Source: an uncultured Fibrobacterota bacterium (GTDB lineage Bacteria; Fibrobacterota; Chitinivibrionia; Chitinivibrionales; FEN-1185). Taken from it: a DNA stretch of 64,000 bases. Shown here one piece after another: positions 35,885-53,963 of the stretch. Position 1 is the stretch's first letter. Each line of letters begins with the position of its first letter. The position numbers were made by a program, and so were the translations under genes. The DNA is taken from assembly GCA_963729895.1 (NCBI GenBank), contig CAVSQB010000013.1, positions 5,051 to 69,050 of the forward strand. The letters run 5' to 3'. The notes under the pieces are model-generated. The model was not told the origin of the DNA. It did not search any database and saw only the letters and a program-made list of their open reading frames with translations.

Positions 35885-37501
35885 ATGCTTCCCTTTTCCG
35901 CTCCGCTCCATCCTGTCTTTCTTTACGCCGAAACCCATTTTCGGTTCTTTCCCGCATTTCCAAGTCTTCTCTTCAAAAAAGAACCTGAGATTGTTTTCGA
36001 TCTACCCTGCCGTTGCGATCCCCGCAAGGATCTTCCCGTTGTGCTGATTGTCAACGACGTCCACAGGTTCAACGCCGCCGTTGTCGACGTCGCCGTCACG
36101 GTTTCACAGGAGGGAATGGCGCCGCTCGCGTTCAAATTCAACGATCCGACTGCACATTTTGTCAATCACCCTTTTCGCGAACACGCTCATGTGTTTGTCT
36201 TCCTCATTGCTAGATCTGCTCTCCCGAATGGAAGAATATTCGTAAATTGCAGGGCAACTCTGCAGAACAACAAACGGCGATGGATCGTGCTTAACGATAA
36301 TTTCTTTTCAACCTCCAAACTCCCGTTTTCATGTTACCTATCCGATGAACCGCTTCCAGGCCACAACAGGTGTTCATTTGGCGATCTGCACGTGCATTCT
36401 CAATACTCCCAGAGTCAAGTGGAATTCGGCCCTCCCATAAATATAATCGATCTAATATCAAATACTTGCGGATTGGACTTCGTTGGAATAACCGACCATT
36501 CCTATGATCTTGCCTGCTCTATGGCTGATTACCTCCAAAAGGACGATACGTTGGCCCGCTGGAATTCACTCGTTGAAGCAACATTCACGCCTGACGCCTT
36601 CAAAAATATTATTCTTTTGGGAGAAGAGATTTCAACTCTTAATGCCCATGGCAAAGCAATTCATCTCTGCGGATTAGGCCTCACCAAATTTATTCCGGGA
36701 TCGGTTGACGGAGCAAGATCGAAGAAATTTGAAACAATGAATTTAGACGAAGCAATCAGGGAAATTCATAGCCAAGGAGGGCTTGCAATGGCCGCCCACC
36801 CGGGCTCAAGGTTCGGGTTGCTTCAGCGAATGTTCTTGAAACGCGGCCCTTGGACGCAAAAAGAAATGGCTGCAGATCTTGATGCCGTTCAAGCGGTCAA
36901 TGATGGATTTGGCACTACTTGGCTTGCAGGCAAGCAATTGTGGATAAATGAACTGCTAAAAGGGCGACACCTCCCGGTTATTGCCGGAAACGATTCTCAC
37001 GGCGATTTTAACAGGTATCGTTATTTGAGCGCTCCATTTCTTTCCGTTTCAGAGAATTTTAACCGCCATCTTTCCTTTGCAAGAACGGGAATTTACTGCA
37101 ATGCAAGGTCTGGAGGAGACGTTCTTTTGGCGATACAAAGAGGAGCGACATTTGTGACGAGCGGACCATATCTCGCCATCACCCAATCATCTTCATTGGA
37201 TGAGGACGCCGGTTCAGCTCAACGAGCCGCCGTTGCAAAGGGCTCAATAACCGCCACCATCAAAAGCAGTTATGAATTTGGAACTCCGAAACGTCTTGAC
37301 ATATTTATCGGCCAGGTTGGTGAAAAGAAGGAGCGAATCGTCTTTTCAAGGGCTTACAACGGTCAAAACACGATTGTTCAGGAGATCCCTCTTGGTTTGT
37401 ACACGAATGATGCGTATGCCCGGGCAGAAGTTTCTTGTGCAAGGCAGGACGGAACAAAAACTTTTGCCGCAACAAGCCCGCTATATTTCGCGACACAATG
37501 A
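35885..37501 (+). CDS. PHP-domain metallohydrolase (CehA/McbA-like)
   Basis: GDLHVHS, ITDH, GEE, AHP, GNDSHG. Confidence 0.82.
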   Translation: MLPFSAPLHPVFLYAETHFRFFPAFPSLLFKKEPEIVFDLPCRCDPRKDLPVVLIVNDVHRFNAAVVDVAVTVSQEGMAPLAFKFNDPTAHFVNHPFREHAHVFVFLIARSALPNGRIFVNCRATLQNNKRRWIVLNDNFFSTSKLPFSCYLSDEPLPGHNRCSFGDLHVHSQYSQSQVEFGPPINIIDLISNTCGLDFVGITDHSYDLACSMADYLQKDDTLARWNSLVEATFTPDAFKNIILLGEEISTLNAHGKAIHLCGLGLTKFIPGSVDGARSKKFETMNLDEAIREIHSQGGLAMAAHPGSRFGLLQRMFLKRGPWTQKEMAADLDAVQAVNDGFGTTWLAGKQLWINELLKGRHLPVIAGNDSHGDFNRYRYLSAPFLSVSENFNRHLSFARTGIYCNARSGGDVLLAIQRGATFVTSGPYLAITQSSSLDEDAGSAQRAAVAKGSITATIKSSYEFGTPKRLDIFIGQVGEKKERIVFSRAYNGQNTIVQEIPLGLYTNDAYARAEVSCARQDGTKTFAATSPLYFATQ

Positions 37502-39560: not shown

Positions 39561-40142
39561 TCAATGTACAAATAGCATCATTACGCCTTTTCTCACCATC
39601 ATGACGCCGATCGCAGCAAGCAACAAACTGGCGAGTTTTGACACCGTTTTTGCGCCCGTCTTGCCAAGCGTCCGGATTATTGCCTGCGAGAACCACAGCA
39701 CAACGCCCGCAAAGGCTACGTTGACAACGACGGCTGTGATCGTGGGGGCAAGTCCATATTGACGGAGAAGAAGAATGGTAGTGGTAAGGACCGCCGGTCC
39801 AACAATGAGCGGCACCCCTACAGGAACGGCTCCGAGGCTCTGAACGTCCACTTTATGTTGATGTTTGTCAAACGATATGAGGTCATATAGTGACAGCGCA
39901 AAAAGCAATACGCCGCCCGCGATCATGAAATCGGATACGGTTATGCCCAGCAGGTTAAGAATGATTTCGCCGATAGCGCAGAAGACCATGGCAACCGCAA
40001 GGGCGGTGATTACCGACTGGAAAACGATCTTTCGAACCCGCAGAGGGTTCACACCGTGCGTGAGATTCATGAACAGCGGTAGAACCCCGATGGCGTCTAC
40101 CGCAACAAACAGAGGAACAAAACAAAGCCAGTAGTTCCGCAT
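39561..40142 (-). CDS. MarC-family membrane protein
   Basis: FMIAGGVLL, VPVGVPLIVGP; multiple TMs. Confidence 0.92.
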   Translation of the reverse strand: MRNYWLCFVPLFVAVDAIGVLPLFMNLTHGVNPLRVRKIVFQSVITALAVAMVFCAIGEIILNLLGITVSDFMIAGGVLLFALSLYDLISFDKHQHKVDVQSLGAVPVGVPLIVGPAVLTTTILLLRQYGLAPTITAVVVNVAFAGVVLWFSQAIIRTLGKTGAKTVSKLASLLLAAIGVMMVRKGVMMLFVH

Positions 40143-40163
40143 CCGCCGTTTCCCTTGCCTCGC

Positions 40164-42023
40164 TCACTTCTCCTCGAAGTCGTACGAAATGTGATACATG
40201 TCTTCCATCTTCTTCGTCGAGACTTTGAATCCGGAATTGTAGAACACCGCAAGCATGGGTTGGTTCTGCTCCAGCACCTCAGCCTCAAACCCGACAATAT
40301 CCCGTTTCCGAGCAATATCCGTGAGCATGTCCAAAAGATCGGTGCCGATGCCCTTGGCCTGCCACTCGTCCCGCACCAGAAACGACACCTCCGCCTTGTT
40401 GGTGGCCTTGTTGAGGTGATAGCTGCCCAAGCCAACCATCTGTTCACCACCCATATCCTGGATCAGGCCTACAATTACCATGTCCTTGGAAAAATCACAA
40501 TTTGTGAAGTCCTGGACAAAACGGTGCGGAAATGCCTTGATGGGCTTGAAAAATCTGAATGCAATGGACCGCTCCGAAAGCGCATAGCACATATCACGCA
40601 AGAGTTTGTCGTCGGTCGGACGGATGGGGCGGAAATACAATTGCGTTCCGTCCGAAAGAGGCTTCACATTATCAAATTCGCCCGGCGACGGAGCACCCGT
40701 GGAGGGAAGCTCTTTCTGGTGAGCGTAGATGTAATTGCGCGCTTTTGCCTCCTTCAGGATTTCGTTGCGATAGTCCGGGTGAGCAACCTGCGCAAGCGCG
40801 AGCACGCGTTCGCGTATGTTTTTGCCGAACAATTCGGCAATGCCGTACTCGGTAACGACGTAGTGCACGTCGGCGCGCGTGAGCACCACTCCTGCGCCCT
40901 CCGTGAGCCGGGGCACAATTCGCGACACCGTGCCGTTCTTTGCAGTTGACGGAAGGGCGATGATCGCTTTCCCATCCTTGGCGCGGACCGCGCCGCGGTT
41001 GAAATCTACCTGTCCGCCCACCCCGCTGTAGAAATTGAACCCGATGGAGTCCGAGCATACCTGGCCGGTCATGTCCACTTCGATCGCAACATTGATGGCA
41101 ACCATCTTGTTGTGCTGGGCGATAACAAAAGGATCATTGACATATTCGGAAGGACGAAATTCGAAAAGAGTGTTTTCGTGGATGTAATCGTAAAGTTTGC
41201 GGGTCCCGAGACAAAAGCTCGCCGTCACCCTTCCGCGATTGATCGTCTTGCGGTTGCCGTTAATCACTCCCTTTTCGACCAGCGGAACTATCGCGTCGTT
41301 GAACATTTCGGTGTGGATTCCTATGTCATTCTTTTCGCCAAAGTACCGCAGCACCGCCTGAGGAATGGTGCCGATACCAACCTCCACGGTGGAACCGTCC
41401 TCCACGAGCGACGACACGTTCCGGGCGATGGCATCGATAGTTGCGTCCGATTCGGGAAGCCGGTATTCCAGTATGTCGCTACCGCTGAGCACCATCGCGT
41501 CCACGAGGTCGGCAGGTATGAAGGAATCACCGTAGGTGCGCGGCATCTTTTCGTTGATTTCCGCGATAACCAAGAGGCTGTTTTCAGCCGCGGCCTTCAC
41601 AATGTCAACCGATATGCCAAGACTCAGGTTGCCGTTTTTGTCCGGCGGGCTGGTTTGGATGAGCGCCACGTCGAGGGGAATCCTGCCAAGCTTGAAAAGG
41701 GAGGGGATTTCCGACAGAAAAATCGGAACGTAGTCGCCGCGTCCGCTTACGATCCCCTCGCGAACGTTGGGCGCCAAAAAGAAACTGCATGTTCTGAATT
41801 TTTTGCTGTATTCTTCACTGATATAGGGCGCTTCACCCTGCGTAAGGAGGTGATATATTTCCGCGTCGATGATCTCGTTGTTGCTGGATACCAGCTCCGA
41901 TACGAGCGTTTGCGGCTGACCGCATCCCGTACCGATGAAGATACGGGCGCCCGGGCGAATCCGCGATATGGCCGTATTGGCAGTTGTCAATTTGTTCTTA
42001 TACCGTTCTTTCCAGTCGGTCAT
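40164..42023 (-). CDS. Acetyl-CoA hydrolase/CoA-transferase - GNAT acetyltransferase fusion
   Basis: GIHTEM catalytic Glu, GVGGQVDF, YVVTEYG; C-terminal RPIRPTD...RFF and WQAKGIG GNAT motif A. Confidence 0.9.
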   Translation of the reverse strand: MTDWKERYKNKLTTANTAISRIRPGARIFIGTGCGQPQTLVSELVSSNNEIIDAEIYHLLTQGEAPYISEEYSKKFRTCSFFLAPNVREGIVSGRGDYVPIFLSEIPSLFKLGRIPLDVALIQTSPPDKNGNLSLGISVDIVKAAAENSLLVIAEINEKMPRTYGDSFIPADLVDAMVLSGSDILEYRLPESDATIDAIARNVSSLVEDGSTVEVGIGTIPQAVLRYFGEKNDIGIHTEMFNDAIVPLVEKGVINGNRKTINRGRVTASFCLGTRKLYDYIHENTLFEFRPSEYVNDPFVIAQHNKMVAINVAIEVDMTGQVCSDSIGFNFYSGVGGQVDFNRGAVRAKDGKAIIALPSTAKNGTVSRIVPRLTEGAGVVLTRADVHYVVTEYGIAELFGKNIRERVLALAQVAHPDYRNEILKEAKARNYIYAHQKELPSTGAPSPGEFDNVKPLSDGTQLYFRPIRPTDDKLLRDMCYALSERSIAFRFFKPIKAFPHRFVQDFTNCDFSKDMVIVGLIQDMGGEQMVGLGSYHLNKATNKAEVSFLVRDEWQAKGIGTDLLDMLTDIARKRDIVGFEAEVLEQNQPMLAVFYNSGFKVSTKKMEDMYHISYDFEEK

Positions 42024-44131
42024 GATTGCCCGGGCTCCTTTGTAAGAATTATCCTTGCATCAACTACCACGGCGCCGTCTCCCTCCTGCCCCACTTTGAG
42101 CGGATTGATGTCGACCTCCTCGATCTCCGGGAAATCCATTACCAGTTGTGAAAGCCTCTGCAGGTTGAGCACTATGGCATCCACGTCGACCGGTTTTTCA
42201 CCCCGGACGCCCTTGAGGAGGCGGTAGGTCTTGACGGATTCAATCATCGACATGCATTCTTCCGCGGTGACCGGCGCGAGGCCGAACGTTACGTCCTTGA
42301 GCACTTCCACAAAGATGCCGCCCAGGCCGAACATAAGCATGGGCCCAAACTGCACATCGCGCTTCATCCCCAGAATAACTTCCCTTCCTCCCATCGCCAT
42401 CTTTTCGAGCAGCACTCCCCGTATCTCGGCGTCAGGCATTTTGCGTTTTATCCGCAACATCATGAGTTCGAACGCATCTTCCACTGCGGAGGCGCTTGCC
42501 AAGCCGATGCGCACGCCGCCGACGTCGGATTTATGAAGTATGTCCGGGCTGGAAATCTTCATGGCAAGAGGAAACCCTGCTTCGTTTGCGAAGCGCACCG
42601 CCTCGCCGGCCGTGGTGGCAAGTATGCCACGCGGCACGTCGAAGTTGTAGGCCTTCATCACGGCCTTTGCGTCGAATTCCCCTATTTCGAACATCTTCCT
42701 GTACCGGTATGAACGCAGGATTTTGATGACCGGATTTCTGTTGACCGCGAACCGTTCCACCATGCGGAGCTGCCGCACCTTGTAACGCGCGTAGGCAACC
42801 ATTTCGTTCATTGTTTTTGCCGCGCGCTCCGGAATCGGATACTGCGGTATCCGGTTCGCCTGGAGGATGGCCACGCCTTTTGAAATGATGTCTGCTCCCA
42901 TAAAGCAAGTCAACACCGGCTTGTTGTATTTCCCGGTTACCCGGACAATTTCCTTGGCCGTTCCCACGTCATCGGTCATTTTCTGCGGAGTAAGTATGAT
43001 CACGAGACCGTCGACGGATTCGCTCGCAAGCAGGATGTCGATGGCTTTGCCGTATGTTTCACCGCTTGCATCACCCAGCACGTCGACGGGGTTGTGCACC
43101 GAGGCGGCAGGCGGCAGCAGTTTCTGGAGCTTGGCGCTTGTATCGTCGTCGAGCTTTGCAACTTTGAGGCCGGCCATTTCGAGTGCATCCGACATCATGA
43201 TGCCGGGGCCGCCGGCGTTGGTTACAATTGCGATCCGGTCGCCCGCGGGCAGGGGCTGGTACGCAAGCGCGGTTGACACATCGAAAAGATGCTCGATGGA
43301 ATTGGCGCGTATGACGCCGGTTCGCTCAAAAGCGCTGTCGTATGCCGCGTCAGCGCCTGCGAGGCTGCCCGTATGCGACGACGCAGCGCGCGCGCCTGCC
43401 AGGGTGCGGCCTGCCTTGAGGATGACGATCGGCTTTTGTTTGCCCACGCGTTCGGCCACGCGCATGAAGTCCTGGCCGCGTGAGATGTCTTCGAGGTAGG
43501 CGGCAATTACTTTGGTGTTGTCATCGTTGCGCAGGGTCTCAATCAGTTGCACCTCGTCAAGAGCTGCCTTGTTGCCCATCGAAACAAGCAGCGAAAATCC
43601 GATCCCGTTGTTGGCGGCAATATCCTGGATCGCGGTGATGAGAGCGCCCGACTGCGAAATAAAGGCGATATGCCCCGGTTCTCCCATGGGCTGCCCGAAC
43701 GATGCATTGAACCGGTGCACGGGGTTGATGAGGCCGAGACAGTTAGGCCCCAGCAGCGTAATGCCCGCTTGGCGGGCCATCTGGGAAATTTCGCGTTGAA
43801 GTTTTCTTCCTTCGTCACCCGTTTCACCGAACCCCGCGGTGATTATGATGACTCCCTTTACCCCCTTGTCGATGGACTCCTTGAGAACCTGAATCACCTG
43901 CTCGCGTTTTACAACAATCACGGCACATTCAATTTCCCCCGCAATCTCGGCCAAGGTCTTATGGCACTTTAGTCCCAGGATCTCGTCGGATTTCGGATTT
44001 ACCGGATAGATTGATCCGGGGAAATTGCCCGTAACGATGTTATTAAGTACTGCATACCCTACTTTGTCCGGATTGGCGGAGGCCCCGATCACGGCCACCG
44101 ATGCCGGAGAGAGTAACTTGTCGAAACTCAT
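42020..44131 (-). CDS. ADP-forming acetate--CoA ligase, alpha-beta fusion
   Basis: VAVIGAS, GPNCLG, ISQSGA, SHTGSL (phospho-His), NPVDVLGDA, HKSDVGGV, DINPL. Confidence 0.9.
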   Translation of the reverse strand: MSFDKLLSPASVAVIGASANPDKVGYAVLNNIVTGNFPGSIYPVNPKSDEILGLKCHKTLAEIAGEIECAVIVVKREQVIQVLKESIDKGVKGVIIITAGFGETGDEGRKLQREISQMARQAGITLLGPNCLGLINPVHRFNASFGQPMGEPGHIAFISQSGALITAIQDIAANNGIGFSLLVSMGNKAALDEVQLIETLRNDDNTKVIAAYLEDISRGQDFMRVAERVGKQKPIVILKAGRTLAGARAASSHTGSLAGADAAYDSAFERTGVIRANSIEHLFDVSTALAYQPLPAGDRIAIVTNAGGPGIMMSDALEMAGLKVAKLDDDTSAKLQKLLPPAASVHNPVDVLGDASGETYGKAIDILLASESVDGLVIILTPQKMTDDVGTAKEIVRVTGKYNKPVLTCFMGADIISKGVAILQANRIPQYPIPERAAKTMNEMVAYARYKVRQLRMVERFAVNRNPVIKILRSYRYRKMFEIGEFDAKAVMKAYNFDVPRGILATTAGEAVRFANEAGFPLAMKISSPDILHKSDVGGVRIGLASASAVEDAFELMMLRIKRKMPDAEIRGVLLEKMAMGGREVILGMKRDVQFGPMLMFGLGGIFVEVLKDVTFGLAPVTAEECMSMIESVKTYRLLKGVRGEKPVDVDAIVLNLQRLSQLVMDFPEIEEVDINPLKVGQEGDGAVVVDARIILTKEPGQS

Positions 44132-44316
44132 TTTCCTCGTCCTTTTAACATGCGATTTGGGTATATTTTATCATATTTGTCGATCATTTTCCCGACATTC
44201 CAGCTTTGGGAAACCGTAAAAAATACATTCTGCGCGGGTCTATTTTGTTTTTCTTGACTGTCCTGCGGGATGCCGCCACGCAAACCGTGTCGGTCAAAAC
44301 CTATCCGTAAACTATC

Positions 44317-45453
44317 ATGGAACAGACACGCTACGCATACATTCATTCAAGCGAAATCGAAAAGTATCATTATCCCTCCTCGTGCCCATTCAAGACCGAA
44401 CGGGCCGCTCTCACCAAAGCGATTCTCACGTCGAGTGGTTCCTATACCGGCGGCAACCGCGCCGAAGTTGCTCCGGTATCGCTCACCCATGACGAACTTA
44501 CCCTGTTCCACACCCCTGAATACATTGAGCGGCTGCAACGGGTATCGGCCGGATCCTTCGAAGTTTCGGATCTGCATGCGGGCCTGGGCACTCAGGATAC
44601 GCCGATATTCGCCGACCTCTTCACTTATGCGACTCTCGCGGCCGGAGGAACCGTCACCGCCGCGCGCCTTGTTCTGGATTCCGGTTTCCGGGCGGCTTTT
44701 AATCCATCGGGCGGCTACCACCATGCATATGCCGATAGAGCCGGAGGTTTCTGCTATGTCAATGATGTCGCCATCGCAGGTTTCGTTCTCGCCAATGCGG
44801 GCAAGAAGGTGTTCTGCCTGGACCTCGATGTGCATCACGGAAACGGCACCCAGGCCGCGTTTTACAAGGACCCGCGGGTCTTTACCGTGTCGTTCCACGA
44901 AAGTGGAAAGACGCTTTTCCCCTGGGGCGGGTTCGAAAACGAAATCGGCGACGGTGATGGCCTCGGTTTCAACGTCAACGTTCCCCTGCCTGCGGGCACC
45001 GACGACGCAATTTACTGCACGGCCTTCAAGGACATTGTTCCCCCGCTCCTGTCGGCATTCGCACCGGACGTTGTCGTTCTGGTACTCGGCATGGATGTGT
45101 TGTCGACCGACCCGCTGGCCCATCTTAAAATGACCAACAACGCCTTTGCGGATATTCTTCCCCTTGTCGCGCAACTCGGAGCGCCCATTGTGGCGGTGGG
45201 CGGCGGCGGCTACCACCCGGAAAACACGGCCAGGGGCTGGGCGCTTTTGTGGACCGTCCTGTGCGGTGTGGAGCCGGAATCCGACATGTCAATTGGGATG
45301 GGGGGCGTTTTTCTGGGAAATTCGGAATGGAACGCGGGACTGCGCGACATGAGGATCTATGCAATGGGCGACGAGAAGGAGAATATCCTGCGGGAAGTAA
45401 CGGCCACAGTTGAATATGTCAAGAAGACGGTATTCCCCCTTCACGGGATCTAA
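44317..45453 (+). CDS. AcuC/HDAC-family Zn-dependent deacetylase
   Basis: GGYHHA, GFCY, DLDVHHGNG, SFHE, DPL, GGGGY. Confidence 0.92.
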   Translation: MEQTRYAYIHSSEIEKYHYPSSCPFKTERAALTKAILTSSGSYTGGNRAEVAPVSLTHDELTLFHTPEYIERLQRVSAGSFEVSDLHAGLGTQDTPIFADLFTYATLAAGGTVTAARLVLDSGFRAAFNPSGGYHHAYADRAGGFCYVNDVAIAGFVLANAGKKVFCLDLDVHHGNGTQAAFYKDPRVFTVSFHESGKTLFPWGGFENEIGDGDGLGFNVNVPLPAGTDDAIYCTAFKDIVPPLLSAFAPDVVVLVLGMDVLSTDPLAHLKMTNNAFADILPLVAQLGAPIVAVGGGGYHPENTARGWALLWTVLCGVEPESDMSIGMGGVFLGNSEWNAGLRDMRIYAMGDEKENILREVTATVEYVKKTVFPLHGI

Positions 45454-46941
45454 CGAGCCTGTAGAAAAACCCTGTTTTCAATAAAATCGGATTTCCCTTG
45501 TTCTCTGTCAAGTCAATTCGCGCTTTGTGCGGAAAGGTAAGAATGCAGGTTCAGAATTGTGGGGCGAGTGGCGTTTTTAGGTGAATCTGAGGCCTTGTGC
45601 GCCCTATAGTGAGGGACAAGCCGGCCCCCGGGCTCTTGCTAATGCCCATAGGAAGGCCCGAACCGGTAAATCTTGAAAATGTTGTGCACCATCGAGTACA
45701 GCTTCCATTGCGTATCGGCCTTTGTCCTGGTGCGCACGGTAATCCTATCGAGGCCGAGCGTCCGGCAGATGTTGGCGAACACCGGTTCCACCGTGCCCAT
45801 TCGCCTGCTGTATATGTACCTGCCGAAGGCGGAGTCGAATTTCTCGATCATCCGTTTGGTATAGGCCCCCGTTGATCGTGGGCCGGATTGATCGAACTTC
45901 ACCACCTGTCTGCGCTCCGTATGGTCAAGCCGCAAACATTTCTTCCGAATTTCACATGCAAGGCAGTCGGCTTTTCTCCCGGCATAGGCGATCCCGTGTT
46001 CGCCACGCGTCCCGACATAGTTCTTGTTCAACACGTAAAGCTTGTTGCCTGCAGGGCAGGTAAGCGTGCCGTCGGATTCATTCAGGATAAAATCACTTGG
46101 GGTAAAGTAGTGCTTTGACCGTACCGGCGTCTTGTTGCGGTCAATCGGATTTTTGTGCCGGTCCGCATCCGCAAACTGCGGGTCGCGCTTGCGGAATTTA
46201 TTGTCCGCAACGTACCCGTCCACTCCTTCTTCCGCAAGCATCTGCATGTTCGCTTCGCTATGAAAACCGCTGTCCGCAGTCACTTTCGCCTGAGTAAAAA
46301 TGTCGGGCTCGCCTATGGCCTCAAAGTTCTCCCGCACACCGTCGATCATCGGCTTCAAAAGCGCGTTGTCCGTCCCCTCGCTGAATGCCTCGGCATGAAC
46401 GATCACCTGGCGCTTTTCATCAACCGCCGCGGCGCCGTTGTAGCCCTGGATCACGCCGTGTGAGCTCGGCATCTTCGCGCTCTCGTTGTCCGTGATGTTG
46501 CTCTTCTTCGCCTGTCCCTTAGCCCCGCGCTTATCCTCGTTTTTCCGCATCCAACGGTTGATCTTGCGCACCTTCGAACGAAGGTGGTTGATCGCCTTCC
46601 GTTCCTTCTTCCGTATGTCCTCGCCAAGTTCACGCTCATCGCACTCGCGGTGCTTGCGCAAAAGAAAACGAACCTGGTACTCTATCTTCTTCTTCCGCTT
46701 CTCGAAATCCTCGAGTGTGCCGCTCCACTCCTTGGCGCAGTTCGAAGACATCTTGCAGCCATCGATCGCAAACATTTGCCGGCTGATCAATCCCTCCTCC
46801 GCGCAATACAACAGGATGTCTCGGAACAGCGGCGTGATCTCCACATGCATCGACGAAATAAAATGTGCAATCGTCGTAAAATGCGGCTTCGTATCGGCCG
46901 AGAGTGCCATGAACATCACGTTCTCCTCGCAGCAGCGCTGG

Positions 46942-47799
46942 CTATACCCCAATTACTTTCTCAGTCGAAATGGGAGTTTTCTCTTTGAATTGACCTCTGT
47001 ATTCTTCAGGTGTTTTCCCCTTTAGTGATCCGTGTGGCCGTATCCGGTTGTAAATGTTCTTCCAATGTTCGATTATTCTTTCTGCGTCCTCTAATGAGAT
47101 GAACCAGTTTTCATTCAAGCATTGGTCCCTGAATATCGAATTGAATGATTCTACAAAAGCATTCTGGCTGGGCTTGCCGGGCTGAATGAATTCCTGCCTT
47201 ACCTGGTTTCGTATTGCCCAGAGCATGAGTTCTTTGCTCCGGAATTCCGGGCCGTTATCAGTCAACAGAGCTTCCGGCTTTCCGTACCTGGCCACCAGGT
47301 GGTCTAGAACTTGGCAGACTCCTAGTGCTGGAATAGAACGTGCTACCTTGATTGCAAGAGCCTCACGGGTGCAGTCATCGACAACATTCAGGCATTTCAG
47401 CTTGCGCTTGTCGGAAGTACTGTCGAATATGAAATCCATTGACCAGCGACGGCTTGGCCGATCCGGCAGCGTCAACGGCATCCGTTGGCTATTGCGTTTC
47501 TGACGCCTCCTCCGCTTGCTTTTCTGAAGCGATTCTTCCTTGTAGAGCCGATGCACACGTTTGTGATTTACTATGTACCCAAGGTTGCGGAGATACCAAT
47601 AAAGCGTCGGAAAGCCCCATGAACGGAACGATGAAATGGTTTCATGCATTTTTGTTTTCAACTCGCTGTTCAAAGCCGATTCCTGCGGTCGATAGCGGTA
47701 CCCTGCCGGTGTCATACCCAGAAGTCCGCATGCTTTCCGTTGACTCAGGCCTTGCCGCATTAGTGCGTCCACAGTCAGCCTACGCTGAGGACGCTTCAC
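46942..47799 (-). CDS. IS3 transposase OrfB (DDE)
   Basis: WSMDF, TDNGPEF, QNAFVESFN, YNRIRPHGSL. Confidence 0.94.
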   Translation of the reverse strand: MKRPQRRLTVDALMRQGLSQRKACGLLGMTPAGYRYRPQESALNSELKTKMHETISSFRSWGFPTLYWYLRNLGYIVNHKRVHRLYKEESLQKSKRRRRQKRNSQRMPLTLPDRPSRRWSMDFIFDSTSDKRKLKCLNVVDDCTREALAIKVARSIPALGVCQVLDHLVARYGKPEALLTDNGPEFRSKELMLWAIRNQVRQEFIQPGKPSQNAFVESFNSIFRDQCLNENWFISLEDAERIIEHWKNIYNRIRPHGSLKGKTPEEYRGQFKEKTPISTEKVIGV

Positions 47800-48062
47800 T
47801 ATTTTCTTTGCAGCACTTCCTTCATTGCATCGATCTGAAGTGCCTGGTCTGCAACAATCCGCTTGAGCCGGCTGTTTTCGCCCTCGATCTCCTTCATCCT
47901 TTTCAGATCAGAGAGCTCAAGTCCGCTGTATTTGCTCTTCCAACGGAAGTACGTGTTCTCTGAAATACCATATTGACGACAAAGATCAGCGACTTTGGCT
48001 CCGCGGTCGCCCTCTTGCAGGATCCGAAAAATCTGCTCTTCACTGTAGCGCTTGCCTTTCAT
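47799..48062 (-). CDS. IS3 transposase OrfA (HTH)
   Basis: RYSEEQI..LCRQYGISENTYFRWKSKY; OrfB lies in the -1 frame across AAAGAAAATAGTG. Confidence 0.94.
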   Translation of the reverse strand: MKGKRYSEEQIFRILQEGDRGAKVADLCRQYGISENTYFRWKSKYSGLELSDLKRMKEIEGENSRLKRIVADQALQIDAMKEVLQRK

Positions 48063-48536
48063 GAGTCCTCCTAGTTAGTTTAAAATAACTCGGAAAACTC
48101 CCTTCTCAAATGAGCAAGTTTTCGGGGGTATAGCCAGCGCGCTATGTCCCGGCTGTGCATGATGCCCCGGGAATACGCGTAGAGAACAATCTTCAGCATC
48201 ACGCGCGGGTCGTACGCGGGCGCACCGGTCTCGTCGTTGGTAAACCGGCCCTCGAAAACAGAAAGGTCCAGCACATTATCCACGATCTCGCTCAACGCGA
48301 ACTCGAAACTGCCCGGAATGATCTGCTCGCGAAACGTGATGGGGATAAGCTTGCCTTGTTCGTAGGAATACTCTTTGTAGCGGGCCATCGGCCTTCCTTC
48401 CTGCTGAGTTTACAAATAATATAAGGAAAAAAGACCGGAATTTCAGGTAAAAGTGGCGGGAAAGGGACTTTTTCTACAGGCTCAACGGAACGCTATCCGC
48501 CTCTTTCTGAGGCCCGCAACCATGCCCGCGAACTTC

Positions 48537-49148
48537 CTATGGGCGCCCAAAAAGAAACTCGCGCTCGCCGTTGGTGCACAGATATGAAGTTCGCTGCTCC
48601 AGCGGCCGCATCACGATCTCGATATCGCGGTTAGACCGGTGAAAGTACGCCAACTCCTTTGCACGAATTTCCTGAAGTTGCACCGTTGTGCCGCGGACAA
48701 CCCGTGCGATATGCAAATACGGCTGCGGCGTGGACGACGGACCGGCCATCATGACGAGCAGGCCGTTTGGCTTCAACATGGCACACCACGTTTTCACAAG
48801 GTCTGTCAGCAACCATGTTTCGAGGTGATCCGGAATGTCCCATACGTTGATACCGTCGAACCGACAATCGCGGTAGTCAATTATTGCGAGGGCTCTCTCC
48901 AGCTCCTGCCCAGGCACTTGCATCTTATTAGTCAATCGTAGCACAAAATCGCATACGCTCAATTTTGCGCCAAGGCTGAGAAAAACCGAAATGTTATTGC
49001 CCGATATCGGACCGATATCGAGAATCTCCGGTCTTTCACACTTGGCAAGATGCGCAAAATATCGCTGCAACATTCTGCTTTCGTATTCGCCTGCTTCCCG
49101 TTCATTACTTCCGCGAGGGGCGCGGTTCTCAACGGCGCTCAAATGCAT
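48537..49148 (-). CDS. Class I SAM-methyltransferase-like protein (degenerate motif I)
   Basis: ILDIGP, FDGINVWDIPDHL, LKPNG. Confidence 0.65.
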   Translation of the reverse strand: MHLSAVENRAPRGSNEREAGEYESRMLQRYFAHLAKCERPEILDIGPISGNNISVFLSLGAKLSVCDFVLRLTNKMQVPGQELERALAIIDYRDCRFDGINVWDIPDHLETWLLTDLVKTWCAMLKPNGLLVMMAGPSSTPQPYLHIARVVRGTTVQLQEIRAKELAYFHRSNRDIEIVMRPLEQRTSYLCTNGEREFLFGRP

Positions 49149-49153
49149 TTGGA

Positions 49154-49669
49154 CTATACCGGAGGCATCGACGGCGGCTCATCGCCTTCCGGTGTCCCTT
49201 GGGCGTCAGCAGGTTGCTCGGCAATGGTCTGCTCGGAGGCCAGGGCCTTTTTGGGCTCCTCTTTTTCCAGCTCAATGGTTGCCTTGATAAAGGCCCCGTC
49301 TTCAATTGCAATGCGCTTTGCAGTGATCAGACCCGTAAAATCAGCCTCTTTGTTGATCTGCACCTTGTTACGCGCGATGATGTTGCCTGCCATCATGCCG
49401 CTAATTATCACGTCTTGGGCATCCACATCAGCTTCGATATGTCCTTTGAGTCCGATGGTTATACAATGCGATTTGGTCTCGATGGTCCCCTTCATCCGAC
49501 CTTCAATAATGATGTCCTCATCGGCAAGCACGGTCCCTTCGATTGAAATGTGTTCCCCAATGACCGTTTCCTCCGATGATCTCGACGTGGCACCGGCGTT
49601 TGAGCTCTCATGAACGTGCCTGAAGTCGCTGCCGGTATCTTTCTCCTCACGATTTCCCATTTTAAGCAT
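49154..49669 (-). CDS. Bactofilin (polymer-forming cytoskeletal protein)
   Basis: TVIGEHISIEGTV...IIEGRMKG...IAIEDGAFIKA beta-helix repeats; start uncertain (track gives 49810). Confidence 0.88.
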   Translation of the reverse strand: MLKMGNREEKDTGSDFRHVHESSNAGATSRSSEETVIGEHISIEGTVLADEDIIIEGRMKGTIETKSHCITIGLKGHIEADVDAQDVIISGMMAGNIIARNKVQINKEADFTGLITAKRIAIEDGAFIKATIELEKEEPKKALASEQTIAEQPADAQGTPEGDEPPSMPPV

Positions 49670-49858
49670 TTGCAGTTCCTTTCCGCTGACAGTTGGTTCC
49701 TGTAAAACGACGGCCGTGTTGCCCTCGTGGCCTCGCCCGCGGACTATTTCCTGCCGCAAACGGGTCACAAGGTTTTTCATCCAGATAGTAGATCGTTCCG
49801 CCTTCGTCAATTTGCTTCACCTTTCTTAACCATATTTCTATTAATCAACCAGAATCGT

Positions 49859-50899
49859 TCAAGTTTTGCTTTGTCCGCCTGCCTGTCGCGAATCCGGATT
49901 CTGCCGGTCGACCATCCAACCAAGATATTCGGGCGGCAACGCGCTCGCTTCGTCGAGCAATTTGACATGCTCGGGATCAAGTTGGACATCGGTTGACGCA
50001 AGATTATCGTCGAGCTGCTCGCGGGTCCTTGCACCGATTATGACGCTGGTAACGAACCGGCGACTTAGAAGCCACGCGAGCGCGACGCGTGCCACCGATA
50101 TGCCAACGGCTTGTGCTACGGTTCGCATCGTCCTTATCACGGTCGCCGCTCGAAGCCGGTCAACGGGCGGAAAATCGAAGGCGCTGCGCCTGCTGCCCGC
50201 GGGTCCGGGTTGCTCCAGGTCGAACTTTCCGGACAACAAGCCTCCGGCAAGCGGGCTCCACGGAAACAAAGCGAGACGTTGGTCTAAAGCAAGAGGCACG
50301 ACCTCGCGTTCGATGTCTCGTCCCGCAATGGAGTAATACATTTGTGCGCTTTGAAAACGGGCCAAACCGTTGGCGTCGGCAAAAGCGAGCGCCTTCATGG
50401 CTTGCCAAGCAGGAAGATTGCAATAGCCGATGTAACGCGCCTTGCCCGAACGGACCACCTCGTCCAACGCTTGAACCGTTTCCTCGATGGGCGTGTCCAG
50501 ATCAACGCCGTGGATCTGGTACAGGTCTACATAGTCCAGCCCCAAACGTCTCAAACTGGCCTCTATCGACGAATGAATATGTTTTCGCGATAATCCGACC
50601 TGGTTGACGCCCGGCCCCGTGCGACCGCGCACTTTTGTTGCAATGATAAGGTCTTCGCGCGGCCGGGAAAGCGTTACAAGAGTTTCACCTAAAATACGCT
50701 CCGCTTCACCCTCGGAATATACGTCGGCAGTATCAATAAAGTTGACACCCGCGTCGATTGAGGCCCCGACGAGCTTCCCGGCCTCCGAGCCGGTAACCGT
50801 GCCTATGGTTTGCCAAAATCCCTTGCCGCCGAATGTCATGGTGCCGAGGCACAATTCAGATACCTGCAGGCCGGTTCCGCCAAAAGGACGATAACGCAC
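49859..50899 (-). CDS. Aldo/keto reductase
   Basis: LCLGTMTFG, DTADVYS, IATK, DLYQIH, WSPLAGG; probable GTG start at 50899. Confidence 0.94.
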   Translation of the reverse strand: MRYRPFGGTGLQVSELCLGTMTFGGKGFWQTIGTVTGSEAGKLVGASIDAGVNFIDTADVYSEGEAERILGETLVTLSRPREDLIIATKVRGRTGPGVNQVGLSRKHIHSSIEASLRRLGLDYVDLYQIHGVDLDTPIEETVQALDEVVRSGKARYIGYCNLPAWQAMKALAFADANGLARFQSAQMYYSIAGRDIEREVVPLALDQRLALFPWSPLAGGLLSGKFDLEQPGPAGSRRSAFDFPPVDRLRAATVIRTMRTVAQAVGISVARVALAWLLSRRFVTSVIIGARTREQLDDNLASTDVQLDPEHVKLLDEASALPPEYLGWMVDRQNPDSRQAGGQSKT

Positions 50900-51365
50900 G
50901 AGCAGCCCCTTTCGCAATGAAACTGATTTCAAGAGCAGGCGAATGGTGATGATGGCTGATCAAAAATCGAGCCAGCACAGATCCTGGGAAAAGGTTCGTT
51001 TTCTTATCGTGCGCAAGGGCCATTACCCCACGAATTCTTAATTTTGAAAAGAAATTCCGAAAGTGATAATCTTGTGCAAACAGGGAATGAAGGGGGCGGG
51101 TCCCGGCACCGAACTCATCTTTTCGAGCTAAGACACGCACACGAATTGGCAGCGGCATATTTGCAGCCTACTCGTCCACGACGGCAGGACCCGTTTTATG
51201 AATGCCTATCGATAATGCGCTCGATTGTACTCACGCCTGATCCAATCAAAGCGTCAGCCGAATTGCTTTGGCCGCTTGGGAGGTAGGGCACGTCACTCAT
51301 CTTTCCAAAGAGTCCTTGCCCGACCTCCTTGCGTAAACGGGTCTCCCTTGTCACGGCATTACCGG

Positions 51366-51956
51366 CTACTTATTCGCCGGCCCAAGCGGAAGCACAGTTT
51401 TGCCGTAAATCTCGTTGAGCACCTGCGCAATGCCGGCATACATGGCCGAAAGCCCGCAGAAAATCCCTTCGTATCCCGCGAAGGTCTTGACCGCAACGCT
51501 TCCTGTGCCATGATCAATGGCAAGCAGAAAGAACAGGATTGTAAGGGACCCGAATACAACCTGGAGGGCCTTGTTGATTTTGAGCGTCCCGACAAAGAGA
51601 AGCAGGGTGAAGATACCCCACATTGTCAAGTAACAAACCATACCCTTGTCGGAGGTCTTGTCGATCCATCCGAGCTTCGGTAAGACGATCAGCGCAACAA
51701 GCGTTAACCAGAACGCTCCGTACGACGTAAAAGCAAGTGTGCCAAAGGTGTTCTTTTTTTTCCACTCCATAATCCCCGCAATAAGCTGGGCCATTCCACC
51801 ATAAAAAATCCCCATGGCCAGTATCATCGAACCAAGCTCGATGATACCTGCATTGCAAATATTGAGAAGTACGGTGGTCATGCCGAAACCGAACAACCCG
51901 AGCGGCGCCGGATTGGCGGTTGTGTCCTTGATTTCGAAAGGCGCGTTTTCGTTCAT
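51366..51956 (-). CDS. satP: Acetate uptake transporter (GPR1/FUN34/YaaH)
   Basis: [35 protein letters not shown]. Confidence 0.95.
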
Positions 51957-51983
51957 TTCTTCCTCCTCGGTCTGAAATAATTG

Positions 51984-53963
51984 TTACTGACGATTCTTTA
52001 CAAGCGAATCCACAACGCTCGGATCCGCAAGCGTCGATGTATCCCCCAAGCTGCCGATGTCGTTCTCCGCGATTTTGCGCAGAATGCGGCGCATTATCTT
52101 GCCCGAGCGGGTCTTGGGCAGGCCCGGGGCAAACTGGATCTTGTCGGGCACGGCGATGGGGCCGATCTCCTTACGGACGTGGTTCATGAGTTCTTTCTTC
52201 AGTTCGTTGCTTTCAGCGACTCCGTCTACAAGCGTAACAAACGCGTACAAGCCCTGTCCCTTGATCTCATGCGGCATGGGCGTGACTGCCGCTTCAGCGA
52301 CCTTCGGGTGGCTCACAAGCGCGCTCTCCACCTCCGCGGTGCCGATACGATGTCCGGACACATTGACTACATCGTCGATGCGTCCCATGAGCCAGTAATC
52401 TCCTTCCTCATCAACTCGACAACCGTCGCCCGTAAAGTACAAGTCGTTGTACATGGAGAAATACGTGTCGATGAATCGGTTGTGATCACCCCACATTGTG
52501 CGCATCATCCCCGGCCAGGGTTTCTTGATGCATAATTTGCCGCCTTCGTTTACGGCGCATTCGGTGCCGTCGTCGCGAAGGACAACGGGATCAACGCCGA
52601 AGAACGGCCTGTTGGCGCTGCCCGGCTTGAGCGTGTGCGCGCCCGGCAGCGGGGTGATGAGAATGCCGCCGGTTTCGGTCTGCCACCAGGTGTCGACAAT
52701 GGGGCATTTCTTGTGGCCGATGTTTTCGTAGTACCAGATCCATGCTTCCGGGTTGATAGGCTCCCCAACGCTGCCGAGCACACGCAAAGAGTCCATTTTG
52801 TATTTTGCCGGCCATGCTTCGCCTTCGCGCATGAGCGCTCGTATTGCGGTTGGCGCGGTGTAGAACACGGTTACCTTGAATTTGTCAATAATATGCCAGA
52901 AGCGGCCGGCATCCGGATATGTAGGCACACCCTCAAACATGAGCGACGTCGCGCCGTTGGCCAGAGGTCCGTACACAATATAAGAGTGCCCGGTTACCCA
53001 GCCGATGTCGGCCGTGCACCAATACACGTCATCGTCGTGAATGTCGAAAATGTACTTATGCGATATCGCGGCATGAAGGAGGTAGCCTGCAGTCGTATGC
53101 ACGACGCCCTTGGGTTTACCAGTTGAACCGGAGGTGTACAGAATGAACAGGTTGTCTTCGGCGTTCATGGTCTCAGGCTTGCAGTCGGCAGAGGCCTTTG
53201 CAATCTCCTCGTGATACCATGAGTCGCGCCCCGACGCCATGTTGCACGGCTCGTCTGTAACCTTTACCACAATTACCTTCTCAATGGTCGGAGCATTCTT
53301 GAGCGCCTCGTCGGCAATATCCTTAAGCTTGATGTGTTTCCCGGACCTCAGAGACACGTTGGAGGTCACCAGAAGTTTACACTGGGAGTCGTTGATCCTG
53401 CCCTTGAGAGAATCCGCGGAAAACCCGCCAAACACGATGGAATGAATTGCGCCGATACGGGCACAGGCGAGCATCGCCACTGGAAGTTCCGGAACCATGG
53501 GCATATAAATGGCAACGCGGTCGCCCTTTTTCACGCCCTTGGACTTTAGCACATTGGCAAATTTGCAGACCTGTTCGTGGAGTTCCTTGTAGGTAATTTT
53601 GCGGACATTGTTCTCTTCCTCCCCCTGAAAGAGAATGGCCACCTTGTTCGCCGTTGCTGTTTTCAGATGACGGTCCAGGCAGTTGTACGATACGTTAAGC
53701 TGGCCGTCGGCAAACCAAGTGTGCTGTATTTTGCGGCCCTTTGTGTTCCAATCGTACTCAAGAGCTTTGGTGGGGTTCTTGACCCACGTAATTATCTTTG
53801 CCTGTTCGAGCCAGAACGCGTCCGGGTCTTTTATCGATTTTTCCCACATGTTCTTGTAGGAATCGAAGCCCTTAACGTGCGCGCGCTCCTGCACCTCCGC
53901 CGACGGAGGGAATCTCCGCTTTTCCACCATAAGAGATTTCATCGCGTTTGGTTGATCCGCCAT
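51984..53963 (-). CDS. acs: Acetyl-CoA synthetase (AMP-forming)
   Basis: [31 protein letters not shown]. Confidence 0.97.

Follow-up and report, generated by a model that had tools for sequence, protein, structure and literature searches.

A CoA-transferase–acetyltransferase fusion coupled to an ADP-forming ligase: a candidate acetylation switch at an acetate locus of Fibrobacterota

The locus and its genes

The window analysed here, a stretch of 64,000 nucleotides from the genome of an uncultured Fibrobacterota bacterium, contained a locus that may control the activation of acetate. Its core was formed by two genes of one operon, namely a gene encoding an ADP-forming acyl-CoA synthetase (the ligase) and a gene encoding a CoA-transferase fused to a GNAT-type acetyltransferase (the fusion). 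A gene for an HDAC-type deacetylase was divergent from them, and acs, encoding the AMP-forming acetyl-CoA synthetase (Acs), was located nearby together with the acetate transporter gene satP. We propose that these genes are a candidate switch for the reversible acetylation of Acs. An earlier note, made from the letters of the sequence, had pointed out the genes and their motifs, an ATGA overlap, a 185-bp spacer, nested insertion sequence (IS) elements and the acs-satP pair. All of them were found again, and the main features were as follows (lengths in amino acids, aa).

40164-42023, minus strand: CoA-transferase–GNAT fusion, 619 aa, with AcetylCoA_hydro N and C domains at aa 19-426 and GNAT models at aa ~460-604 (Pfam)
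40167-40676, minus strand: GNAT domain of the Pat-type lysine acetyltransferase kind, fusion residues ~450-619
40719-42023, minus strand: CoA-transferase domain of family I, 4-hydroxybutyrate CoA-transferase type, fusion residues 1-435
42020-44131, minus strand: ADP-forming (NDP-forming) acyl-CoA synthetase with fused alpha and beta parts, 703 aa, with CoA_binding, Succ_CoA_lig, Ligase_CoA_2 and ATP-grasp_5 domains (Pfam)
44132-44316, no strand: divergent intergenic region of 185 bp that separates the ligase operon from the HDAC gene
44317-45453, plus strand: class-I/HDLP-like Zn-dependent lysine deacetylase (AcuC-like), 378 aa, Pfam Hist_deacetyl 270 bits
51366-51956, minus strand: SatP/AceTr acetate uptake transporter, NF038013 278 bits, directly downstream of acs
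51984-53963, minus strand: Acs, AMP-forming acetyl-CoA synthetase, TIGR02188 1015 bits against a cut-off of 725

The ligase gene was the first of its operon, and its stop codon overlapped the start codon of the fusion as ATGA. The HDAC gene was indeed divergent from the ligase gene across the 185-bp spacer, as the note had described.

The genome of the window (4.41 Mb, 96.7% complete) carried single copies of the ADP-forming ligase (ATP-grasp_5), the Pat-type GNAT, the AcetylCoA_hyd_C transferase and an Acs over the TIGR02188 cut-off, and it had two HDAC-family genes. Neither a sirtuin nor a PTA_PTB phosphotransacetylase was found in this 96.7% complete genome. The second HDAC-family gene was located about 3 kb from a 905-aa frame with an AMP-binding match at its C-terminus (C6:5037-5690, C6:1783-2232). 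In the related Chitinispirillum, acetate is the main fermentation product, and its formation with a gain of ATP has been ascribed to a one-step acetyl-CoA synthetase (PMC4814513).

Catalytic residues of the encoded proteins

According to Pfam, the ligase had the full set of five subdomains of the ADP-forming acyl-CoA synthetases (ACD), with CoA-binding, flavodoxin-like, ligase-CoA and ATP-grasp parts, and no GNAT domain. It possessed the motifs SHTGS at residue 252 and HKSD at residue 533, which provided the catalytic residues His253 and His533. The best match in the PDB was 8wzu, an ADP-forming 4-hydroxybutyrate-CoA ligase, over the full length and with 563 bits. The ACD alpha subunits 2csu and 4xyl were matched as well, and PatZ was matched more weakly (332 bits). 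His253 was aligned with the corresponding His of the enzymes, whereas PatZ had a four-residue gap at SHTG; the His of HKSD was common to all of them. Both catalytic His residues were also invariant in 32 ligases encoded next to a fusion. In PatZ, the catalytic His is replaced, which abolishes the ACD activity (PMC12184503). Thus, the ligase kept both phospho-His motifs without a GNAT, as had been claimed, and the sequences pointed to an architecture unlike that of Pat, with the ligase as a separate protein.

In five relatives (L175-L179), the ligase gene was located alone at the same syntenic locus, directly followed by FolC and without the fusion, MarC, HAD and HDAC genes. Therefore, it was considered a real enzyme in its own right. 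We also considered the possibility that the '4-hydroxybutyrate' names of the homologues revealed the substrate of the ligase or of the transferase. This was rejected because the NCBIfam equivalog cut-offs were widely missed, with 673 against 1300 for the ligase (NF045493) and 270 against 675 for the transferase. In TIGR02717, the ligase scored 556 against 567.

The transferase domain had the two-domain CoA-transferase fold in full length and matched the PDB entries 9vag, 3eh7 and 3gk7 over residues 3-430 with 437-371 bits. The motif HTEM was found at residue 237 of the fusion with the catalytic Glu239, and a GGQVDF motif was present too. Glu239 was aligned with residue 238 of 3gk7 (AbfT), which we take to be the nucleophile of that enzyme. 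Moreover, the spacing of G-I217-G, E239 and N242 in the fusion matched that of G-V227-G, E249 and N252 in RipA, where Glu249 is the catalytic residue (PMC3180442). These alignments suggested that the transferase was likely to be active, in agreement with what the note had concluded from the Glu of HTEM.

The fusion carried the motif RPIRPTD at residue 465, the catalytic Glu545 and the P-loop Q-A-K-G-I-G at residue 555. Its GNAT domain was aligned with slPatA (4nxy, 65 bits), PatZ (9it0, 50 bits) and MtPat (4ava), and Glu545 was placed on E123 of slPatA, E235 of MtPat and E809 of PatZ, the last of which is described as the key catalytic residue (PMC12184503). The GNAT domain was thus of the Pat type, as proposed. 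Pat-type GNATs acetylate the active-site lysine of Acs and need their regulatory domain for activity (PMC8556138, PMC12184503). The fusion polypeptide consisted of CoA-transferase and GNAT only and had no synthetase-like domain of the Pat kind; the synthetase encoded upstream was not of the dead sort, since His253 and His533 were present. An AF2 model of the fusion had a pLDDT of 95 and a pTM of 0.92, where only a linker near residue 445 dropped to ~70, and this was compatible with a fixed arrangement of the two domains. The predicted complex of the ligase (703 aa) with GNAT residues 440-619 scored 0.00 against a mark of 0.32, in a run without controls.

The deacetylase matched HDLP (1c3p), Clr6, Rpd3 and HDAC8 in the PDB and was closest to the class I enzymes and to the HDLP of Aquifex. 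It kept the motifs HH, D-x-H, D and GGY at positions 132, 169, 258 and 295, which comprised the HH pair, the Zn ligands D-H-D and the Tyr. In Acs, the acetylation-site lysine was Lys622 of PKTRSGK.

The fusion family

A word-indexed search found more than 120 clusters of fusions with 63-93% identity, annotated simply as 'GNAT family N-acetyltransferase' or as 'acyl-CoA hydrolase/GNAT'. In an exhaustive HMMER search of representatives at 50% identity, full-length fusions were 71 of the best 150 matches, and fused homologues reached down to ~30% identity (31-53% in the alignment). The architecture was seen in Fibrobacterota, Aminicenantes, WOR-3, Delongbacteria and Myxococcota. A literature search found no description of a CoA-transferase–GNAT protein, although it largely left subscription journals uncovered and one may exist there. 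The classifications of 2021 and 2025 list, in their available parts, five types of GNAT, none of them with a CoA-transferase, and describe the synthetase-like domain of Pat as inactive (PMC8556138, PMC12184503). Thus, the architecture was apparently undescribed, whereas control of acetate activation of the Pat and AcuA-AcuC type is itself known.

Several members of the family carried further domains. Single-chain CoA-transferase–GNAT–HDAC proteins were represented by P0170 and P0173 and by four loci with frames of ~1000 aa, two in Myxococcota (L168:5199-8216, L170:7001-10024) and two in Fibrobacterota (L180:497-3502, L181:5938-9018). In two other frames, P0263 and P0194, the C-terminus of a ligase was joined to the transferase. 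A ligase, transferase and GNAT on a single chain was not found among the longer homologues, where the only two matches were nematode gene models of a transferase joined to ion-channel domains; this absence was weak evidence. An extra N-terminal region of 330-550 aa was present in P0130 and P0137 and, as predicted from the open frames, in L150:5834-8884, L155:5681-8884 and L162 (to 3492); the region of P0130 and P0137 contained 4Fe-4S dicluster motifs, and in L150 and L155 the transferase Glu was replaced by Gln. Two Pat-like ligase–GNAT fusions of 902 and 905 aa were also seen in Fibrobacterota (L182:1107-3815, L183:5422-8139). Unlike PatZ, they kept both catalytic His residues in the synthetase part, and in L182 an HDAC-family gene ended 1 bp before the fusion on the same strand.

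Conservation of the gene neighbourhood

A pattern scan with one genome per species provided 40 loci with the fusion and 34 loci with unfused transferases. The ligase gene was directly upstream of the fusion in all 39 loci that had upstream DNA, since L038 started inside the fusion; these loci belonged to Fibrobacterota, Aminicenantes, WOR-3, Delongbacteria and Myxococcales. Within the DNA scanned, no ligase was found beside the unfused transferases, neither in 33 species loci nor in 12 metagenome loci. The latter came from a scan with the triple fusion P0173; all 12 had unfused transferases, and ligase, HDAC and GNAT were absent from every one of them. In the genomes of two ruminant-gut Clostridia, six to seven paralogous genes for unfused CoA-transferases were arranged in tandem (L063:2224-12026, L065:4848-13162).

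An HDAC gene was located near the ligase-fusion pair in 11 of the 40 loci, or in 10 of the 26 with at least 1.5 kb of DNA on both sides. Eight of these genes were divergent from the ligase at 52-352 bp, one was 2.9 kb downstream, and two followed the fusion in the same orientation after 13-17 bp, one in a Delongbacteria genome and one in a Myxococcales genome. Acs (more than 900 bits) was encoded 0.2-5.4 kb from the pair in 8 of the 40 loci and in at least three arrangements, and the order acs-satP was repeated in L001, L016 and L032. Thus, the linkage expected in other genomes held for the ligase (39/39) and only in part for HDAC (11/40) and Acs (8/40). Among 60 flanking open reading frames (ORFs) at loci without HDAC and Acs, no further conserved partner was found; TauE, Mnh subunits and fumarase were among these neighbours.

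In 301 sampled Myxococcota genomes, there were 48 full-length matches to the fusion in ~36 genomes, and 47 of these loci were examined with 7 kb on each side. An adjacent ligase was found in 17 of them, located before the fusion in 11 and after it in 6. Two of the 47 were the transferase–GNAT–HDAC fusions L168 and L170, and L137 had the order ligase, fusion, HDAC. At L127:6959-12891, a ligase gene was placed between two fusion genes, and 2.5 kb upstream there was a gene for an AMP-forming synthetase.

The active site of the transferase varied with this context. Among 72 aligned fused proteins, 41 had Glu239 and 15 had Asp at this position, 49 had G336 and 40 had G337. Of 47 rows of unfused transferases, 38 had the Glu and 7 had Gly instead, and none had lost G336, G337 or D340. 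Among 84 fusions of known context, Glu239 and GG336-337 were kept in 53 of the 53 next to a ligase. Of the 31 without an adjacent ligase, a set that included the second fusion of L127 because the adjacency rule missed an over-extended ORF, 24 kept both Glu and GG, 2 kept Glu only and 5 had lost both. The Glu was absent in all six HDAC-fused forms (P0170, P0173, L168, L170, L180 and L181). These patterns, counted without correction for relatedness, suggested two regimes, with a probably active transferase beside the ligase and a putative ligand-binding remnant where the eraser was fused.

Distribution among Fibrobacterota

Four genes were searched for in 251 sampled Fibrobacterota genomes.

Fusion, E<=1e-150: 55 of 251 genomes
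Ligase, E<=1e-150: 69 of 251 genomes
Acs (TIGR02188), E<=1e-200: 72 of 251 genomes
HDAC ortholog, E<=1e-60: 28 of 251 genomes

The fusion was present in all 7 other members of the window's family and in 0 of 113 members of family f10. The ligase accompanied it in 49 of the 55 fusion genomes, and another 20 genomes carried the ligase without the fusion. The fusion was found in 27 of the 28 genomes with the HDAC ortholog, and the exception (G460) ended at a contig edge. Acs was encoded in 26 of these 28 genomes and in 36 of the 55 with the fusion. Accordingly, the fusion genomes were divided into 25 with HDAC and Acs, 2 with HDAC only, 11 with Acs only and 17 with neither.

All 19 fusions analysed from genomes with Acs kept the catalytic Glu545 of the GNAT, after one row with a mis-extracted ORF was left out. 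In genomes without Acs and HDAC, 8 of 16 fusions had Asp or Asn at this position, and these 8 belonged to two of the five Acs-less clades. On a tree of 38 fusions, which was a gene tree and not a species tree, the state of Acs changed at least 6 times and that of HDAC at least 8 times, and all five Acs-less clades lacked HDAC as well.

Flanking genes and insertion sequences

The remaining features around the operon and between the HDAC and satP genes were the following.

39561-40142, minus strand: MarC/NAAT-family membrane protein (Pfam MarC, TIGR00427), probable last gene of the operon
45455-48483, minus strand: IS5/IS1182-like insertion sequence with inverted repeats at 45455-45469 and 48469-48483 and with DDE_Tnp_1_6 and DUF772 pieces
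46939-48136: IS3-family element nested in the IS5/IS1182-like element, with rve and HTH_Tnp_1 (Pfam)
50932-48537, minus strand: aldo-keto reductase, bactofilin and methyltransferase-like genes, in that order (Pfam)

The MarC/NAAT gene was located 21 bp 3' of the fusion, with HAD and FolC genes next, and MarC was also downstream of the fusion in 8 of the 40 related loci. Its product could be a member of the operon, and in the window's family the gene was probably the last one of it. From the HDAC stop codon (45453) to satP (51366) there were 5.9 kb with two IS elements and three accessory genes. The IS5/IS1182-like element started 2 bp past the HDAC stop codon, and its transposase was in pieces (45639-46952 and 48080-48388), split by the IS3-family element, at whose insertion into this gene GCGC was seen on either flank. 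At least 18 full-length copies of the IS3-family element in the genome were 100% identical, which pointed to a recent burst. The gap of 5.9 kb was therefore regarded as partly recent.

A scan for promoters and terminators at 39.3-45.6 kb did not exceed shuffled sequences, which gave on average 3.9 promoter-like and 8.5 terminator-like sites where the real sequence had 6 of each. The single promoter-like site in the 185-bp spacer, at 44145-44174 on the plus strand, was a consensus match only. Elsewhere in the window, a 538-aa ORF at 35885-37501 (plus strand) was without a Pfam match at E<=0.001.

A proposed acetylation switch and its alternatives

The strictly conserved unit in the window's clade was the ligase with the fusion. 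The single-chain proteins, the neighbouring genes in three phyla and the 27 of 28 genomes all tied the HDAC to the fusion, and in 26 of 28 genomes it occurred together with Acs. A writer–eraser pair for Acs, whose writer was made from the acetate-forming operon, was the simplest account. We thus read the locus as a reversible acetylation switch for Acs, similar to Pat and AcuA-AcuC and built into an acetate-forming operon, and we give this reading a probability of roughly 55%.

When the ligase operon is expressed, the acetyltransferase made with it would acetylate Lys622 of Acs and switch this enzyme off. An ATP-wasting cycle would then be avoided, in which the ligase would convert acetyl-CoA to acetate and ATP and Acs would convert acetate and ATP back to acetyl-CoA, AMP and PPi. 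The deacetylase would restore Acs once the uptake of acetate was needed. The CoA-transferase domain would fill the place of the regulatory domain of Pat. It would most likely couple the output of the acetyltransferase to the pools of acyl-CoA and short-chain acids, either through ligand binding or through its glutamyl-CoA state, and in the window's lineage it would probably still work as an enzyme alongside the ligase. On the gating of the GNAT by the transferase, the comparative data pointed both ways. The loss of the Glu in all six HDAC-fused forms fits the role of a sensor, and the dead-transferase forms argue that ligand sensing may be enough in some lineages. On the other hand, the full retention of the Glu in the 53 ligase-adjacent fusions fits catalysis and argues that catalysis probably matters in the window's lineage.

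A number of findings weighed against this reading. Homology and the distribution of the genes were our only grounds for naming a target of the GNAT. Of the 55 fusion genomes, 19 had no Acs at E<=1e-200, most of them 91-100% complete, so Acs is not the sole partner or target. In these Acs-less genomes, the GNAT was as conserved as the transferase (mean pairwise identity of 66% against 65%), and it must therefore have at least one further role or substrate. The obvious candidates for this further role were the ligase itself or other AMP-forming synthetases; five Acs-less fusion genomes that were checked had 2-7 other AMP-binding enzymes each. After kinship was taken into account, the association of HDAC with Acs was not significant, with 4 independent pairs and a sign-test median p of 0.25; in these pairs, HDAC moved with Acs in 2.6 on average and against it in none. 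Within the DNA scanned, HDAC was not seen in 29 of the 40 loci and Acs was not seen in 32. The layout described by the note, with acs-satP about 6 kb away across IS elements and three genes, was correct, but the linkage was looser than implied, since the spacer between HDAC and acs varied among close relatives, with a GH3 gene in L001, and L003 had no acs within 6.5 kb. In Myxococcota, 30 of the 47 fusion loci had no ligase within 7 kb. Strict pairing was therefore a feature of the window's clade, whereas the family as a whole did not show it. Finally, the genome had a second acetate-forming route, a fusion of cyclic-nucleotide-binding, acetate kinase (AckA) and PduL-type phosphotransacylase domains on a 773-aa chain (C28, L087:997-3318, plus strand), which was also its only acetate kinase. 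This chain was a second enzyme of the acetate node that bore a fused regulatory domain.

The ligase could itself be the conserved partner or target of the GNAT, either as part of a Pat-like holoenzyme formed in trans or as the protein that is acetylated, and Acs would be a secondary, lineage-specific target. The 39/39 adjacency with the ATGA overlap, both gene orders in Myxococcota with the one fusion-ligase-fusion locus, and the ligase in 49 of the 55 Fibrobacterota genomes with the fusion all favoured it, as did the persistence of the pair with a conserved GNAT in the 17 genomes without Acs and HDAC. It was also in line with the direct ligase–GNAT fusions of the same phylum that had both His residues (L182, L183), with the joined frames P0263 and P0194, and with PatZ, where the CoA-binding and ligase-CoA domains help to form the pocket for Acs (PMC12184503). 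However, HDAC followed Acs and not the ligase, as 19 of the 20 genomes with the ligase only were without HDAC, the exception again being G460 at its contig end. To our knowledge, although no search was made, no ADP-forming acyl-CoA synthetase is controlled by acetylation. Moreover, the ligase stood alone in L175-L179 and thus needed no partner, and the 30 Myxococcota fusions had no ligase nearby. We therefore considered this explanation rather unlikely. The pair could also be mainly metabolic, with the transferase and the synthetase forming a cycle similar to that of acetate:succinate CoA-transferase and succinyl-CoA synthetase or acting on a specific acid such as 4-hydroxybutyrate, and with the GNAT as a minor or non-protein acetyltransferase. 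In that case, the retention of Glu239 and GG336-337 in 53/53 ligase-adjacent fusions, and their complete loss in 5 and partial loss in 2 of the 31 others, would be expected, and the nearest characterised relatives of both proteins use 4-hydroxybutyrate (8wzu and NF045493 for the ligase; 9vag, 3eh7 and 3gk7 for the transferase). Nevertheless, the equivalog cut-offs were far missed on both sides, the ligase probably works alone in relatives, and the active site decayed across the wider fused family (Glu239 in 41/72 and G337 in 40/72, against 38/47 and 47/47 in unfused proteins). The GNAT was of the type that acts on protein lysines and had its catalytic Glu and P-loop, and a metabolic role alone would hardly explain why it is fused to a protein deacetylase or occurs together with one. 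A purely metabolic role was thus improbable.

The proximity of HDAC and acs-satP could instead be inherited synteny without functional meaning, so that only the two-gene operon was a unit. The spacers that differed between close relatives (the IS elements with three genes, GH3 in L001, no acs in L003), the majority of loci in which neither gene was seen and the test that was not significant after correction for relatedness could all be read in this way. However, mere synteny hardly accounts for HDAC fusion proteins in two phyla, for HDAC genes directly 3' of the fusion in loci of Delongbacteria and Myxococcales, for Acs near the pair in three arrangements and for the fusion in 27 of the 28 HDAC-ortholog genomes, and we regarded it as very improbable.

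A broader view of the family was possible, although we considered it doubtful. Namely, the CoA-transferase–GNAT proteins could be a sixth, widespread class of bacterial lysine acyltransferases, regulated by a domain with ping-pong catalysis of its own. The covalent glutamyl-CoA state of this domain would mirror how much acyl-CoA there is relative to free short-chain acid, or the transferase would use a free acid to produce the acyl-CoA donor in place. Acetate or other acids would then act directly on protein acylation. Some lineages would have moved to a pure sensor with a fused eraser, where sensor, writer and eraser are on one chain. The pairing with an active ADP-forming synthetase would be the ancestral state behind the dead regulatory domain of Pat.

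If the locus is the switch for Acs that we prefer, it represents a further type of writer beyond the five domain types, and one that was found across several phyla. Its regulatory domain would be a true metabolic enzyme acting on CoA esters, and the operon of the ATP-yielding, acetate-forming enzyme would also supply the writer. This arrangement would offer fermenters a simple way around the futile cycle of acetate excretion and uptake. The family also provided a series that led from an active transferase with an active synthetase to a dead transferase fused to a deacetylase. Comparing these states could show how enzymes turn into allosteric sensor domains, as in Pat.

Comparison with known systems

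Reversible lysine acetylation of Acs is a textbook case of bacterial protein acetylation. In Bacillus subtilis, AcuA, AcuB and AcuC act on AcsA, and the genes of a GNAT writer and of an eraser resembling class-I HDACs lie close to acs and partly divergent from it, similar to the locus described here. The acu operon is responsible for reversible acetylation of Acs (PMC8556138). However, AcuA is a stand-alone (type IV) GNAT, whereas the writer here was of the Pat type, fused, and accompanied by the CoA-transferase and the ADP-forming ligase. Between 35.9 and 58.1 kb of the window, Pfam revealed neither an AcuA-type stand-alone GNAT nor an AcuB protein with CBS and ACT domains.

In Salmonella and E. 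coli, Pat or PatZ (YfiQ) works with CobB, and the similarity consisted of a homologous GNAT, an associated NDP-forming acyl-CoA synthetase module and the lysine of Acs as the expected substrate. In Pat, the synthetase-like module is fused at the N-terminus and inactive, with the alpha His missing (PMC12184503), and here it was a separate gene with both His residues. The GNAT was fused to a CoA-transferase instead, and the eraser was of the HDAC type in a genome where no sirtuin was found.

The type III GNATs, such as MtPat with its cAMP-GNAT architecture, the ACT-GNATs and the NADP-binding MxKat, have a regulatory region of 300-400 aa at the N-terminus that is followed by a Pat-related GNAT (PMC8556138), which resembled the order of domains in the fusion. 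Here, however, the 435 aa at the N-terminus made up an entire enzyme, nucleophile Glu included, and were not a described sensor domain.

The two catalytic modules also had known counterparts. The ligase shared its domains, both phosphohistidines and a full-length alignment with ACD and with the ADP-forming 4-hydroxybutyrate-CoA ligase of Nitrosopumilus (8wzu), but it stayed below the equivalog cut-offs, and its gene was translationally coupled to that of an acetyltransferase. The transferase resembled AbfT/Cat2 and RipA in its full-length match over residues 3-430, in the catalytic Glu, in a G-x-G gating loop that precedes this Glu by 22 residues, and in GGQxDF (PMC3180442). It differed from them in the GNAT domain at its C-terminus and in a family history in which part of the fused members had lost both the nucleophile and the GG pair.

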